Source: Eledone cirrhosa
Lineage: Eukaryota
Length of the DNA stretch: 64,000 bases
Direction of reading: 5' to 3'
Assembly: GCA_964016885.1 (NCBI GenBank)
Contig: OZ024740.1
Location: forward strand, 322,214,001-322,278,000
In this document: positions 636-63,480 of the stretch, piece by piece
How positions within the stretch are numbered: position 1 is the stretch's first letter
How the letters are laid out: each line of letters starts with the position of its first letter
Made by a program: the position numbers and the translations under genes
The notes under the pieces: model-generated
Databases searched by the model: none
Told to the model about the DNA's origin: nothing
Seen by the model: the letters and a program-made list of their open reading frames with translations, nothing else

Positions 636-969
636 TTATATATATATGTATATTAGAAAGAGTCATGGCCCGACTCTTTCTAATATAGCCATACACTACT
701 ATCCCAAATATCGAGTACTCTGTTGAGTAATTATTTTAAAACTGGGTCTAACCTGATGGGTGTGTGTGTGTGTGTGTGTGTGTGCGTGCAGAATAAGTTC
801 GATCATTCAGTATCTGTAAATATGAGGTAGTATTTAAGTCAGTAATCTAGTAATCAAGTAATTTTAACATTAAAAAAACAACATTTATTAATTATTTAAC
901 TATATAAAACGAATTTTGTTAACGAAATAAAAAATTGTCTTATGGAAGATACAGTAACATCAGAGTTAC

Positions 970-1162
970 CTCCCTTGCACAGATTGCTTATTCCCTCGCC
1001 TATTTCTTTATTTATTAATCTCATTTCCTCTTTATCTGTTATTTTCTCTCCTTCTCTCCATTTTTATATTTTCACATTTCAATTTCTCTCTCCTACTTTC
1101 GTTATCTCGGAAATAATTTTGATTAAATTTTGTCAACATTTTTTGGTTCATAATTAAGGTGT
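970..1162 (-). other. Candidate 5' exon of a leftward host gene
   Basis: Minus-strand acceptor ataattctag at 1163-1172 and donor gtaact at 964-969. A strong minus donor gtaagt at 1537-1542 lies upstream in CpG-richer unique DNA. No homology support. Confidence 0.2.
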
Positions 1163-1199
1163 CTAGAATTATGATTTAAAACGTCTTGTTAAATACTGG

Positions 1200-1950
1200 C
1201 ATAAAATACAACCACCCGTGGTAATGCTGCGAGCGTGTTGGCTTGCCTCAAAATATTCTGTTGACCCTTGTGATGTGCGGCTGATTGTCGCACTTAGTGA
1301 TGAATTGATGGTCGAATTCTTCTTTTTTTCTTTCTCTCGCTTTAGTCAAATATTTGTACGTCATATTTGTGAGGTTCCTAGTCATAATTAATTGTATTTA
1401 TTATATGTTTATATTTGTGTTTATATGTTCATTCTGAAAGAATTGTGAACAAATTCAACTGCGAATAAAATTTACACAAGAGATTTTTTAAAAATACAAA
1501 TATATAGATCAACGTAATCTCGTTTCTATTTGCCTGACTTACAATGTGACATTCAACAAGTCTTTAGTAATAATTATGCATGTATATATATATGTGTGTG
1601 TGTAAATAGATTTTTCCCTGTGTATTCGTTGGTGTTATTCTCTGTCCGATTTCAGCACGCTCTCTACGCATTAATACTTGCCACTGAAAAATAAAACCGA
1701 ATTCTTCCCGTTTCTCATCGAGTATTGACCCGGCCGTTCTAAAATTAGCGACTCGTGTTACATTTGGACAATGATGATCACGATAAATTCCTATTATATT
1801 TATATATATATACACACACACACACACACACACAGAAAGTTAAAGATACCCGGGGAGAATGTGGATTGTTATTCAGTAAAGGAATATGTCTTTCTCATGT
1901 TTTGTCGGTGGAGAGAAATGCGATATATTTGTAAAATCTATCGTAAAATT
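1200..1950. promoter_or_regulatory. CpG-retaining unique region, possible promoter or 5' end
   Basis: CpG visibly more frequent than in flanks; largely free of repeats; contains a minus-strand gtaagt donor; next to the tRNA gene. Confidence 0.3.
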
Positions 1951-2153
1951 TAGAATGAAGAAAATTAGCTACAGTAATTTTTAATGAGAAAATGTTATAA
2001 ATTTTAGACAACATGGCTGAATCATCTCCAATTAATGCTATAAAATTAATCTCATATAGTCCTTACTCATTAAAAATTAAAAAATATAGATATATGCTTA
2101 TCGCATTTCTGAAATCGATATAAAGCATGAATTTTACACTTGAACTTTCAGCA

Positions 2154-2226
2154 GCCGAAATAGCTCAGTTGGGAGAGCGTTAGACTGAAGATCTAAAGGT
2201 CCCTGGTTCAATCCCGGGTTTCGGCA
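2154..2226 (+). tRNA. trnF-GAA: tRNA-Phe (anticodon GAA)
   Basis: 73-nt GCCGAAATAGCTCAGTTGGGAGAGCGTTAGACTGAAGATCTAAAGGTCCCTGGTTCAATCCCGGGTTTCGGCA. Acceptor stem GCCGAAA/TTTCGGC, anticodon GAA at 2187-2189 (positions 34-36), A and B boxes intact; canonical metazoan tRNA-Phe. Confidence 0.98.
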
Positions 2227-2248
2227 TCCGGAGGCTGCTCCTTATTTA

Positions 2249-2262
2249 TTTTATTTTTTTTT
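2249..2262 (+). terminator. RNA polymerase III oligo-T terminator
   Basis: T4 then T9 run 22-36 nt downstream of the tRNA. Confidence 0.75.
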
Positions 2263-2349
2263 AAAAATAACTTTTATAATAAATATTTACTATTAAACTG
2301 TTATTTTTTTTGTATTGCGTCTGAATGTGTGTTCTTTACATCATATTCA

Positions 2350-59574: not shown

Positions 59575-60064
59575 GTATGGCTGTGTGGTTAAAGAATTAA
59601 TTTGGCAACCATGTGGCTTCTGGTTCAGTCCTACTGTGTGCCCCCCCCCCCCCCCCCCCCCCACACACACACACTTCATCCTATGTTTTTTACTATTGGC
59701 TTGGGTTGACTTGACTTGTGTGTGAAATTTGGTAGATGGAAACTATGTGGAAGCTTGTCATGACATATGTGTGTGTGTTTGTGTGTGTGTATAAATGTAC
59801 ATATGTACATATATGTACATATATATGTATATATACATATGTACATGTACATATATATGTATATATACATATGTACATATGTACATATATGTACATATAT
59901 ATGTCTATATATATATATATATATATTTATATATATATATAGAAACATATATATATATACATAAGCTAGCATGGAAAATGGATGTTAAACGATGATGATG
60001 ATGATGATGATACATATACATATATATATATATACACAAAAAATATATATATATATATATATAT

Positions 60065-60300
60065 ATACAAAAAAACACACAGTCCACGCTGTAATGTGGC
60101 CGTGTAAGTAACACGGTAAAAACCTCCCAGTCCACACTGTAAACGTGGTTGGTGTTAGGAAGGGCATCCAGCCGTAAAAAACCCGCCTACACGAGCAAGA
60201 CAACCAATCTTGCCTCAAGTGAGAAAATTCCCGTCCAAACCCATGCTAGCGTGGAAGATGGACGTTAAACGATGATGATGATGATGATGATGATGATGAT
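60065..60300 (+). mobile_element. RTE 3' UTR fragment
   Basis: Matches 11480-11706. Confidence 0.88.
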
Positions 60301-60444
60301 GATATATATACTCACATAAGAGTCTGGAACTAGCTGTCGAAACAGCAACAGCTCAGACATCGGCCCCGACTCTTTATAATATATGTGTGTATATATATAT
60401 ATGTGTGTATATATATATATATGATGATGATGATGATGATGATA

Positions 60445-60642
60445 TAACGAAGGAAATGTGGTAAGGAACCAGATGGACCATAACGCACCAAAGTACTCAA
60501 TACTTAGGGTAGTAGAGTGGGTAATAGGAACGAGTAGGACCCCGACGGCTGAGCTCAAGCCGTTTCGACGGCTAATTCTGGACTCCAGAATTAGCCGTCG
60601 AAACGGCTTCAGCTCAGCCGTCGGGGTCCTACTCGTTCCTAT
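60445..60642. mobile_element. Tail of the 15674-16193 family with near-perfect hairpin 60524-60642
   Basis: Same terminus TAAC.AAGGAA.TGTGGTAAGGAACCAGATGG; ~59-bp arms with a 1-nt centre. Confidence 0.92.
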
Positions 60643-61681
60643 ATATATATATATATATAATTAAGAGACGGAACTTGTCAAATAGAACAGACATAGCTTC
60701 GGTCATTTTGTTACTCACTCAATGACCAATTAAGTTTGTACTAATACAATTCAAACCCAACATATATATATATAATATATATATACAGATATATATATGT
60801 ATATATACATATATATATATAAATATATATAAGAGTGGGTATGACACTTGTTCATTATCAAATGTAGAAAGCTCAATGTATTAATCGCTTATGGAAGAAT
60901 ACAGAGCATAATAATTTGGTTTGTCACTTGTTTTAAATTATATATATATGTGTGTGTGTGTCTGCGTGTATACATATATATATATGTGTGTGTGTCTATA
61001 CACTCATATACGTGTGTGTGTGTACACAAGCATTGAAAATTGACAAAACTGTTATATGATGATATATATGTATAAATATATGTATGTATGTGTGTGTGTA
61101 TGAGTGTCTGTGTGCGTGTATGTGTATGTACCTGTGTGTGTGTGTATGTGTATGTGTATGTGTATACACTTGTGCATACAAGCATGAAAAATAGCAGTCG
61201 AATAAAACAGGTGCCAGACTCGAAGAAAAGAAAATATAGTGGTGTCAATATGATTGACAAAATCCCTTCAAGGTAGTGCTCCAGCATGACCACAGTCAAA
61301 TGACTGAAATCACTAAGACAATAATAGAATATTAATTCAGTTTATTAATAAGCGAGAATGCGTTTGATATTAATTTAACGCGTTAAACATTTAATTCATG
61401 TTTTCACATTTCCATGAATTTCAACCAATTTATTAGTCTAATGTTATAAAATGAGGTGTGGTTAGAGCAGAATATATTTCATTGTTTCTTTCTCTCTATT
61501 TCTCTGTCAACATGCATCTCTCTCCTTCTTTTACTTCTCGTTCTTTCTTTCATTTTCTCTCCCACTCTCTTTCCCCAATTTTCTATCTCTTTCTGTGTCA
61601 TCTTCACCATTCATCTATCTATCTATTTATCTATTTGTCAATCTATCTGTGTATCTGTCTGTCTATCTATCTATCATCATA

Positions 61682-61910
61682 GAAGAGAGCAAAAGGAAGA
61701 AAGGAGCACTTGCACAACACGCTCCTGGAGTTGTGGGTTGTTCTATCGACGGGGTATTAAACAACCCATTTGTGGCGCCTCCCCACTATTGAGGATTTCG
61801 ATTGTTGTAATTGTTTGTTTTTATATTTTTTTACATGACTGTATGTAAAATCCCCGGCATGTCTTTGTATTGTCCCCTTTTCTTGTGCGCCCTTGTGGCT
61901 AATAAAGAAA
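61682..61910 (+). mobile_element. Tx1-family 3' fragment in (TATC)n
   Basis: Highly similar to 46850-47078; flanked by CTAT repeats. Confidence 0.9.
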
Positions 61911-62679
61911 TATATCTATCTATATTCATCATAATTTAACATCCGTTTTCGTTGCTAACAAAGGTTAGATGGGTTCTACAAAACAGTGTCAGTACTCAAA
62001 TGAAGCTACAAACCTTTAAAATGGACCTGGGGCCAACATCTCACTTACATATGTTCCTGCATTCTACCAAGTAATCAGTTGGGTTAGGAGACCACATCTT
62101 GCTTTCATACATTCTCGCTCTCTTCTAAGTGCATTTTTATGGCACCAGCACTCGGGAGATTGTCATATCATGTCTATGACATAGTTGAAGAGTCCACCAC
62201 TCTTTATTTGGCATGTTTTCTACAGTGTGATGCCCTTCCTATTACCAACCATTTTACTGGTTGTGTTTATCATGTAGATCCTCAACACTAAGGAGGTTTT
62301 CATGTCTTTGACACAACTGTAGAATCCTCTTGACCTTTTGTTTGGCATGGTTTCGGTGGTTGGATGCCCTTCCTGTCACCAATCACTTTTCACTTTATAA
62401 AGTGTACTGACTTGACTTAGTTTTATTGTGGCACTAGCATTAATGCGGTTGTTAGTTGTAAAGTCAACTAAAGGTCCCTCTTAACTCAGGAATCAGGGAG
62501 AAATATGACGGGGGAGGTAAGAAGGATGATGGGTAAATGACATAAGATAGAGGGTACCAGGTTTATGTTGGGTTTCAAGTAGAGATGTGGAGGAGAGATA
62601 GTGTGAACTAAGTATATCATGGGTGTAAGACCAGTGTGGTAAGGTATGACAGATTGATGAGAGTCTCCTTTCTTGAACA

Positions 62680-63325
62680 CTGCATCATACCCCTCAAATA
62701 CAGAGTTTTTCTCTCAGCTTACTTATGTTATGCTGTTCATGCACACTAACATTACAAATCAATCAGAACATGCTCGCTTCATGTCTTTCTAGCTATCACA
62801 GGTCTTCTACAGTCACTGTCATGTAGCATACACAGTCATCATACAGTCTACCCTTCACTCTGAAGGAGAAGCTCTTTGTTGTCAGCAGAGGTACCAGCTC
62901 CCTAAACTTCTTCTAGCCCACACTTTCTCAGCATCCTTTCCCACTGTTGATGAGATCACCTTGGTAACAAAATCTGTCAAAAGTTTCTAGGGAGCCTCCC
63001 AGTTAATTGAGGCAATTTATTTCATGTGTACTCTTAGTACTTACTTCTCCTGTGTATCTGCTGCATATAAAGTCTATCTTCTCTATTAACCTGCCTATAA
63101 TATCACTACATCTTTTGTGCATTCAAAGATTACATCTTATGGAATTTTTGACAACTCCTTTTCAATATATCAAGCAAGGCTACTTCTCTATCAGTATAAG
63201 GTTGCTGTCTTCTTTCCTACTAATCCATACTTTAGTCCTCACTAAGTTTACTTTTAGGCCTTTCGATTCTAAGATTTTCTTCCATGTCTAGAATGTTGCC
63301 TCTAACTTTTCCATGGATTCAGCTA
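62680..63325 (-). mobile_element. Old RTE LINE RT fragment
   Basis: AESMEKLE..LESKGLKVN..IQKMCS-like and YQGDLI remnants. Confidence 0.75.
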
Positions 63326-63480
63326 TATATATAACCAAATGTTAAACAACGTTCATTGATTATTCAATGAATACAGTTTTACAATAGATTAAAAGCACTC
63401 AACAGTGACATTTTCTGGTGTTATTAATATTATTCAAAATATTAATAAATGGATACATTCACATAATCAAAATATATGTT

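Follow-up and report, generated by a model that had tools for sequence, protein, structure and literature searches.

Why should the same ten nucleotides precede a terminal microsatellite in insertions that otherwise look unrelated? This question is raised by twelve sites in the window analysed here, a 64,000-nt stretch of Eledone cirrhosa DNA. A first-pass annotation had read the motif, RTHGAGTRCT, as a cis signal 40–60 nt before (TA)n in several PLE-derived families. We find that the motif forms the 3' arm of a hairpin unit with a stem-bulge-stem layout, RCTC-Y...R-TH-GAGY-RCT, belonging to Hydra-clade PLEs, and that intact elements carry this hairpin twice, 59–90 nt apart, between the putative hammerhead (HHR) and the start codon.

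The motif and its distance from (TA)n

All twelve 10-mers that had been listed are present, with the correct coordinates and strands (Table 1). Ten of them fit RTHGAGTRCT without a mismatch, where 1.47 would be expected in the window, and none of 100 shuffles reached ten; the sites at 20967 and 48136 match it approximately. In nine of the twelve a TA run comes 41–60 nt further on, the exceptions being 48136, 710 and 20967.

The association with (TA)n is also found in 800 kb of other DNA, taken as 80 pieces of 10 kb at round-number positions. Here the first TA run lies 30–59 nt downstream of 18 of 48 motif matches (background 3.5%), and at 30–69 nt it does so for 28 of 48 (background 4.4%). Controls scored for a TA run at 30–65 nt gave 2/48 for the reverse complement and 29/779 for permuted motifs.

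The families had been called dissimilar, and in 59 of the 66 site pairs the flanks indeed do not align. The other seven are related, sharing the downstream 40 nt at z>3: the sites at 15721, 60492, 20967 and 21183 form one sequence group, and those at 9503 and 52922 another. The same-strand upstream HHR that had been described fared unevenly when inspected by eye. A core is present at 23.5k and 63.4k, but at 14.6k it is decayed, and at 9.5k and 15.7k the motif-linked copy keeps the 3' half only. An Rfam search of the window returned only tRNAs, with no HHR and no family for the hairpin unit.

Table 1. Hairpin units and PLE copies in the window
Feature	Position	Strand	Details
Hairpin 1 unit, dominant family A	15721..15747	-	ACTC-TACT stem, TT bulge, GAGT-ACT; proximal end ~15753, distal end ~15676
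Hairpin 1 unit, family A	60492..60518	-	Belongs to a complete mini-insertion made up of (TA)n, the two arms (inverted + direct) at 60524-60642 and a tail reaching ~60447; TA stub of just 5 nt, then (ATC)n
Hairpin 1 unit	9503..9530	-	GCTC/GAGC inner stem; inverted + direct arms 9534-9802 stop 4 nt before unit
Hairpin 1 unit, relative of 9.5k family	52922..52949	-	Tail-only insertion adjoining short interspersed repeat
Hairpin 1 unit	14674..14696	+	Variant with ATTC/GAGT; arms 14361-14671 form a palindrome; HHR-like core upstream is decayed
Hairpin 1 unit	23513..23536	+	Type with C-G as inner pair; arms 23253-23512 form a palindrome; CTGATGA, the HHR core, at ~23419
Hairpin 1 unit	63394..63421	-	5' arm decayed; HHR core 63534, same strand
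Hairpin 1 unit, related to family A	21165..21192	+	
Decayed hairpin 1 unit	693..719	+	After 40-nt palindrome (~645-684), then (GT)n; folding predicts no hairpin
Probable long-loop hairpin 1	5405..5466	+	5' arm ACTCT 52 nt upstream (by eye)
Decayed unit	20967..20991	-	GAGAACT; no repeat next, no TA run downstream
3' arm of probable long-loop unit	48136..48145	-	GAGCACC; uncertain 5' arm; TA run at 68 nt
Broken Hydra-clade PLE copy	53069..56558	-	RT + GIY-YIG fragments; inverted pLTR arm 55993-56558, ends at proximal site; proximal site ~53208; decayed long-loop hairpin 1 53135-53203; distal end ~53069
Non-Hydra PLE fragment	56672..58121	-	CX4CxxC linker, two Cys inside GIY-YIG, HHR at 56860

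A covarying hairpin in Hydra-clade elements

The motif is a conserved signal, as had been supposed, but it is not a linear 10-mer: it is one arm of a hairpin whose arms covary. One exact form of the unit occurs in 56,793 copies in this genome. Among metagenome elements it was found in 37 of 42 families, with at least one unit before the ORF in 47 of 54 loci and two units in 34 of 54, corresponding to 27 of the 42 families; ORF-internal windows gave 6/432 and 0/432. Under the descriptor used, five families gave no unit and ten a single one. The reverse-strand control (23/54) is not independent, because the stem is self-complementary.

With base pairs counted by script from anchors, the first inner pair is kept in 62 of 63 hairpins (42 C-G, 18 U-A), and the second and third in 41 of 63; in each case 0 of 2000 within-type shuffles did as well. 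Predicted pairing is higher for the sense than for the antisense strand (median 0.76 vs 0.58; 52 hairpins, p=2e-5). G-U shows no excess over A-C when families are compared (17:12, p=0.46), and the genome-wide one (2,380 vs 1,998; controls 338 and 734) is weak and confounded, so that the folded strand may be RNA or single-stranded DNA. Folding in context, modelled for two families of this genome, predicts a low hairpin probability (0.02–0.46), and the predicted minimum-energy fold of family A prefers a different long stem. Rfam searches of nine loci gave sub-threshold miRNA-family matches only, and no covariance model matched the unit.

Autonomous PLEs were checked for the motif, and it is carried by ORF-bearing elements of the Hydra clade. 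Directly behind hairpin 2 there is a single ORF, of 717–719 aa in family A and 809 aa in family B, containing YRDDG and then a C-terminal IY...Y/FIG-type EN region. The Hydra assignment was made from sequence motifs, reference Hydra proteins being compared by eye; Pfam barely recognises these PLE proteins. A CxCX5C linker is present in both families, in the window copy and in most of the metagenome ORFs listed. The EN region lacks CCHH, having one Cys between the GIY-YIG halves (families A and B and the window copy), and both families have DKT instead of DKG. The RWK motif is RWR in family A and RWT in family B, and by eye RWK in relatives of the window family. The carriers occupy (TA)n targets. 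Their tandem periods, 3.53–3.54 and 3.89 kb, exceed the 'generally under 3 kb' of the clade because of long 3' UTRs, that size being a tendency and not a strict criterion in Craig et al. (2021; PMC8557442). Intact ORFs are present at three loci (L349, L351, L352). Selenocysteine was considered for a recurrent TGA and rejected, this TGA being a true stop.

In 15 of 17 metagenome families an HHR core pattern occurs no more than 130 nt before hairpin 1, compared with 7 of 424 control windows. Family A has only an HHR-like predicted fold with a TTGAGAA core, and Rfam gave no HHR match in the window or in the nine loci. Non-LTR retrozymes are defined by tandem HHR-bearing non-coding monomers; the sites here are inverted and direct stubs of ORF-bearing elements, and the tandem arrays found were full-length.

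Within the elements examined, the unit is tied to the Hydra clade. The Neptune/Nematis-type PLE at 56672..58121 served as negative control, and the 61-nt tail of its family contains no hairpin unit. At one non-Hydra locus (L033) a hairpin-like sequence behind the tail is unique to that place (two genome matches, the other unrelated); it was treated as a neighbouring insertion and rejected as a tail signal.

Two hairpins and two insertion ends

The second hairpin was first met in metagenome loci and then confirmed in three families of this genome. It lies directly behind the distal end in 90 of the 100 matches listed for family A (434 matches) and 98 of the 100 listed for family B (274 matches). 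In the window's Hydra family it lies behind the distal end at locus L175; this family is atypical, its tail measuring 150 nt and containing an additional GAGTACT besides a hairpin 1 with a long loop. Insertions end 0–4 nt 5' of hairpin 1 or hairpin 2 in 19 of 23 rows and 14 of 16 families; there are two discrete, sharp ends, and the extension is one-sided. This bears out the proposal of a conserved cis signal, common to PLE families and positionally tied to the element end. The distance of 40–60 nt is likewise real, but it corresponds to the spacer leading to the second hairpin copy, a copy that the insertion does not include.

These sequence patterns suggest that each hairpin is probably a docking site for one RT on the element RNA, setting where synthesis starts. 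Among the roles offered previously, recognition by RT is probably to be preferred to recognition by the endonuclease, and a promoter role fits poorly. The more specific model of programmed twin target-primed RT, in which two ~25-nt hairpins on one RNA load two RT protomers, seems to us about as apt to be right as wrong. Each protomer would start a few bases 5' of its own hairpin, on opposite (TA)n strands. On the docking reading, the endonuclease would nick both strands of the (TA)n target; one RT would prime before hairpin 2, copying the spacer and hairpin 1 as the tail, and the other, using the same RNA, would prime before hairpin 1. Joining the two cDNAs head to head would give an inverted arm, a direct arm and a one-sided tail. 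Hairpin 2 would stay uncopied, which would explain why the first-pass annotation met hairpin 1 alone, 40–60 nt before (TA)n. The abundant mini-insertions would be copies of a short mRNA 5' leader, and long copies would require a read-through transcript extending to the hairpins of the next unit.

The pairing of ends is informative. Two-armed insertions with one proximal and one distal end number 16,986, against 170 distal+distal and at most 211 proximal+proximal; independent choice would give ~380 mixed insertions, so that the excess is ~45-fold. This one-of-each pairing, together with two internal starts in an anole PLE, supports paired RT docking. Arms of mixed insertions diverge by a median of 1 per 24 nt, those of distal+distal insertions by 2 (n=20, 23; p=0.005). 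Arm similarity could also stem from later gene conversion. Among long copies, a second arm was not found in 12 of 20.

In the main rival reading the units act as DNA, either duplex or folded into cDNA hairpins, and the GIY-YIG EN trims a longer intermediate just 5' of each. The tail has been attributed to EN-mediated resolution (Craig et al., 2021; PMC8557442), the EN of D. virilis Penelope needs the tail for cutting (cited by Frangieh et al., 2024; PMC11167929), and the wobble tests leave the strand unfixed. We nevertheless consider trimming unlikely, in that insertions occupy (TA)n and not the units, folding favours the sense strand, the covarying inner stem of variable length fits a folded single strand, and another PLE has two directly mapped RT starts bounding its tail (PMC11167929). 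Sharp ends flush with the hairpins would also be produced if these directed RNA cleavage or 3'-end formation upstream, and ordinary 3'-end TPRT copied both RNA species. Separate RNAs would however pair randomly, against the excess of mixed insertions, and in the anole PLE synthesis begins at internal positions of an RNA that has not been processed (PMC11167929), which makes this explanation improbable.

It is very doubtful that the units are a 5' UTR promoter or translation element, or mere shared ancestry, with no part in setting the ends: both do lie shortly upstream of the start codon, and some window sites are related, but this leaves unexplained the ends flush with both copies in 14 families, and is at odds with the non-aligning flanks of most site pairs and with the compensatory pairing. 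Least credible of all is single distal priming with cDNA fold-back, hairpin 1 halting second-strand synthesis, which predicts one-sided tails and similar arms, but is contradicted as sole mechanism at L175, L176, L180 and L184, where the proximal-ended arm far exceeds the tailed arm and is therefore not a fold-back copy; such arms of up to 2.8 kb coexist with tailed arms of 0.1–0.8 kb, and for 10 long proximal-ended copies no tailed arm was found.

Comparison with known systems

Craig et al. (2021) described the PLE tail, the inverted 5'-truncated copy and the Hydra clade (PMC8557442). Their elements share with ours the one-sided extension, inverted arm, pLTR, putative HHR, (TA)n targets and Hydra ORF motifs, with tails of 30–40 nt against ~60–150 nt in the elements examined here. 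By eye, the unit is also present in consensus sequences published from coral, sea cucumber and copepod: at the 3' ends of Hydra-2_Amil and Hydra-2_Ajap, at the 5' start of Hydra-1_Ajap, as variants at both ends of Hydra-1_Crog and in a weak form in Hydra-1_Amil, with no clear unit in Hydra-1_Obim (PMC8557442). Exact GAGTACT or GAGTGCT has 22 matches in the supplement, none at an element end among those listed, because other hosts use GAGCACT. The available main text does not use the word 'hairpin' and describes no tail signal, ascribing the tail to EN resolution (PMC8557442).

PAc, a Poseidon-clade PLE of Anolis, has in vitro two internal RT starts, one at each limit of the tail, and depends on RNA lying 3' of them; the template is uncut RNA and a dimer is predicted (Frangieh et al., 2024; PMC11167929). 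The starts map within the ORF, in an AC-rich stem-loop, with a binding motif hypothesised within 172 nt. PAc belongs to a different clade, and its starts were measured, whereas here the ends are read from sequence. Neither a conserved or duplicated element nor one-of-each pairing is reported in the available text (PMC11167929).

HHR-bearing short repeats of PLE origin are known (bioRxiv 10.64898/2026.07.22.740005, PMC4209133, PMC7229834), and 'hairpin' is absent from the main texts of these papers as available; the accessible part of PMC13282606 mentions neither hairpin, motif nor hammerhead. Retrozymes are tandem monomers, whereas the mini-insertions here are two-armed stubs of autonomous elements. 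Literature searches found no earlier description of the signal.

PLEs are the closest relatives of telomerase RT, and how they choose internal start sites, and why the tail is one-sided, are questions that the hairpins may answer. The sole in vitro study confined a binding motif to 172 nt at best (PMC11167929); a conserved, duplicated signal of 20–35 nt, with insertion ends flush to each copy, is testable by a few point mutants. The hairpins also provide a rule for fixing element boundaries and for classifying the short repeats, tens of thousands of them, that genomes of this kind contain. If true, the twin-priming rule would cover not only the one-sided tail and the inverted arm but also the leader-derived mini-insertions and the requirement for copies in tandem, and the hairpin would be a minimal signal, and a portable one, for an RT related to telomerase.

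Two familiar retrotransposons offer parallels. In R2, a structure in the 3' UTR of the RNA recruits the RT. In L1 twin priming, two primers from one target are extended on one RNA; the second priming is opportunistic and the arms do not overlap. In the elements described here, by contrast, the arms overlap, and a single signal, present in duplicate, would fix both start sites.

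A hairpin signal ahead of (TA)n

The twelve RTHGAGTRCT-type sites listed for the window by the first-pass annotation are all present, ten being exact matches where 1.47 are expected by chance. The proposed association with downstream (TA)n is also upheld out of sample: in 800 kb from other parts of the genome, sampled at round-number coordinates, the first TA run lies at 30–59 nt in 18 of 48 matches, against a background of 3.5%, with 2/48 for the reverse-complement motif and 29/779 for permuted motifs. Across the genome, a search for GTGCT-form motifs followed by a TA run after 28–58 nt gives 18,712 forward matches vs 179 in the control, the latter being the comparably counted column (the other two count overlapping TA matches several times). 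In a motif-blind test of 31 palindromes that have a tail of 40–180 nt on one side, 15 had GAGYRCY on the sense strand (shuffled mean 0.4), so that about half of such tails belong to other families or have decayed. The 7 antisense occurrences arise partly because the stem itself is symmetrical.

A complementary arm lies 5' of the 10-mer, and the complete unit consists of RCTC-Y, an inner stem and loop, R, a 2-nt bulge, GAGY and RCT. One long form of it has 56,793 exact matches in the genome (reversed control 0). Covariation was analysed in metagenome hairpins chosen by the outer stem alone, with each family and position represented once (63 in all). The bulge is TT, TA or TC in 59 of them, and the 3' RCT is ACT in 55. 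The first inner pair is kept in 62 (C-G 42 times, U-A 18 times) and pairs 2 and 3 in 41, counts matched by none of 2000 shuffles. The outer stem of hairpin 1, the first of two copies of the unit, is mainly ACTC/GAGT in this genome and GCTC/GAGC elsewhere. Predicted folding favours the sense strand overall but is weak in families A and B (below). The wobble comparison gives G-U and A-C pairs at 17:12 across families (p=0.46), and genome-wide only a weak and confounded asymmetry. The description of the carriers as otherwise dissimilar families is right for 59 of 66 pairs of window sites, which have no similarity in the downstream 40 nt, but not for the remaining pairs, which are similar.

The elements that carry the unit

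The tails of autonomous Penelope-like elements (PLEs) had been proposed as one place to look for the motif. Followed upstream, families A (dominant) and B of this genome lead into ORFs of the GIY-YIG type whose linker is CxCX5C (A at L009, L019 and L142; B at L060). Intact tandem copies have ORFs of 717–719 aa (A) and 809 aa (B) with the diagnostics of the Hydra clade, as defined by Craig et al. (PMC8557442); the assignment is by sequence diagnostics, and only the length tendency departs from that definition. Judged by eye, the published Hydra consensus sequences of that paper (coral, sea cucumber, copepod) carry the unit: of six, three are clear, one is a variant and one is weak, while in one no unit was seen.

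A pattern matching the core of a hammerhead ribozyme (HHR) lies upstream of the unit in 15 of 17 metagenome families with enough sequence. Family A has an HHR-like fold (L349, L002, L009, L019, L022) with a long loop 2 and a non-canonical core (TTGAGAA, TTGAAAA, TTGACAA or CTGAGAA), possibly a U3-A8 variant. In the Neptune/Nematis-type PLE of the window no unit is visible in the 61-nt tail between its two ends; an uninterrupted copy, in which this family might show a paired signal of its own, was looked for and not found.

Features of the window and of related loci (C1, contig)
Feature	Position	Remarks
Broken Hydra PLE copy	53069-56558 (-)	
Part of the same copy	53963-54592	TGA stop of most relatives lost; frame 17 codons longer
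Neptune/Nematis-type (non-Hydra) PLE	56672-58121	
Further abundant palindromic family	2985-3320, 27362-27809; L115, L122, L127	one-sided 53–62 nt tail flush with (TA)n, without unit
tRNA gene	2154-2226	GAA anticodon
tRNA-like match in palindromic repeat	16501-16558	probably a SINE head
Short interspersed repeat	5204-5401, 33081-33524, 52950-53051	abuts the 5' side of two tails that carry the motif (5457, 52922); may reflect nested insertion at AT-rich sites, or chimeric copying
Several fragmentary LINE-type ORFs	10257-11708, 28895-31825, 33891-37207, 41816-44620	presumably RTE-, CR1- and L1/Tx1-like, by motifs
Head-to-tail arrays of full-length Hydra elements	L349, L352 (C1:91.48 Mb, 437.2 Mb), L350, L351	periods 3.53–3.54 and 3.89 kb; several ORFs open, 717–809 aa
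Clustered family A hairpins	G000:C1:14.235-14.253 Mb	at least 19, all with the same two changes; probably local tandem amplification

Two hairpins and the ends of insertions

A metagenome scan gave 77 loci with Hydra-like ORFs, of which 54 were kept (7 had less than 110 nt before the ORF and 16 no N-terminal match). Within 176 nt upstream of the ORF, at least one unit is found at 47 of the 54 loci (37 of 42 families) and at least two at 34 (27 of 42 families), compared with 6 and 0 of 432 ORF-internal control windows. The hairpins are spaced 59–75 nt start to start in 26 metagenome families, 78 nt in family A and 90 nt in family B. The exceptions are 15 of the 42 metagenome families and the window's own Hydra family.

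Where a second, ending copy allowed comparison, copies end 0–4 nt 5' of hairpin 1 or 2 in 19 of 23 rows and 14 of 16 families (7 families at hairpin 1 and 8 at hairpin 2, one at both). Ends at either hairpin predict that in this genome a hidden hairpin 2 lies behind the distal end, and it was found: family A has 434 matches, with hairpin 2 in 90 of the 100 listed, and family B 274, with hairpin 2 in 98 of the 100 listed, while the window's Hydra family has a variant hairpin 2 at L175. The family A ORF starts 59–62 nt past hairpin 2 in 21 of 26 retrieved loci that have it. The 40–60 nt noted between motif and terminal microsatellite is therefore the spacer from hairpin 1 to the proposed start site before hairpin 2.

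Family A palindromes sharing a 90–120 nt core combine a proximal end (just 5' of hairpin 1) with a distal end in 16,986 cases, where independent choice of ends predicts about 380. Two distal ends occur in 170, and two proximal ends in at most 211, an upper limit because that search pattern is less specific. Arms differ less in mixed insertions (20 loci) than in those with two distal ends (23 loci; p=0.005), the loci being drawn from the matches listed first and one complex locus left out. The difference is compatible with a single template; conversion could contribute.

Family A 3' ends are bimodal. Its arm 5' ends lie 46–65 nt before the proximal site in 52 of 67 cases; they stop abruptly at −65, and the stretch from −66 to −122 is empty (L001–L050, L111–L170 and the window, against L349). 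The limit coincides with TTAGT/TCAGT, which resembles an initiator, and is a candidate transcription start.

A possible role in initiation

A covarying, duplicated unit, with copy ends just 5' of its hairpins and one end of each kind per insertion, suggests that each hairpin probably docks one reverse transcriptase (RT) on the element RNA and sets the start just 5' of itself. Each bound RT would place the template at this point, both nicked strands of (TA)n would prime on one RNA, and the two cDNAs would join head to head, leaving hairpin 2 uncopied. Solo insertions would thus lose hairpin 2, and long copies would require a transcript reaching the next unit, in agreement with the need for copies of more than unit length cited in PMC4209133. 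Mini-insertions (an inverted arm, a direct arm and a one-sided tail, in (TA)n) would have been copied from the leader of the mRNA. Points against this reading are the exceptional families named above and the weak predicted folding in families A and B.

Endonuclease trimming at the units is an unlikely origin of this pattern, and hairpins that direct RNA processing are a clearly poorer one; we give very little credence to a promoter or to shared ancestry. Fold-back of cDNA is the least probable, and as a pure mechanism it is excluded by the window's family, where the proximal-ended arm is far longer than the tailed arm in 4 of 20 long copies (the reverse in 4, no second arm being found in 12).

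Docking by two hairpins may be set beside PAc, the Poseidon-clade PLE of Anolis. According to PMC11167929, its RT starts at two internal sites bounding the tail, requires RNA 3' of these sites and takes uncut RNA as template, and the protein is predicted to be a dimer. PLEs were already known to have the tail, the inverted arm, the HHR and two start sites; searches of the accessible literature, which excludes subscription journals, Repbase notes, bioRxiv supplements and the PMC11167929 figure supplements, showed no conserved or duplicated tail signal. The motif signal is real and extends beyond what the first-pass annotation saw. The retroelement clade is a known one, the cis element is new, and the two-hairpin rule opens PLE initiation to direct test.
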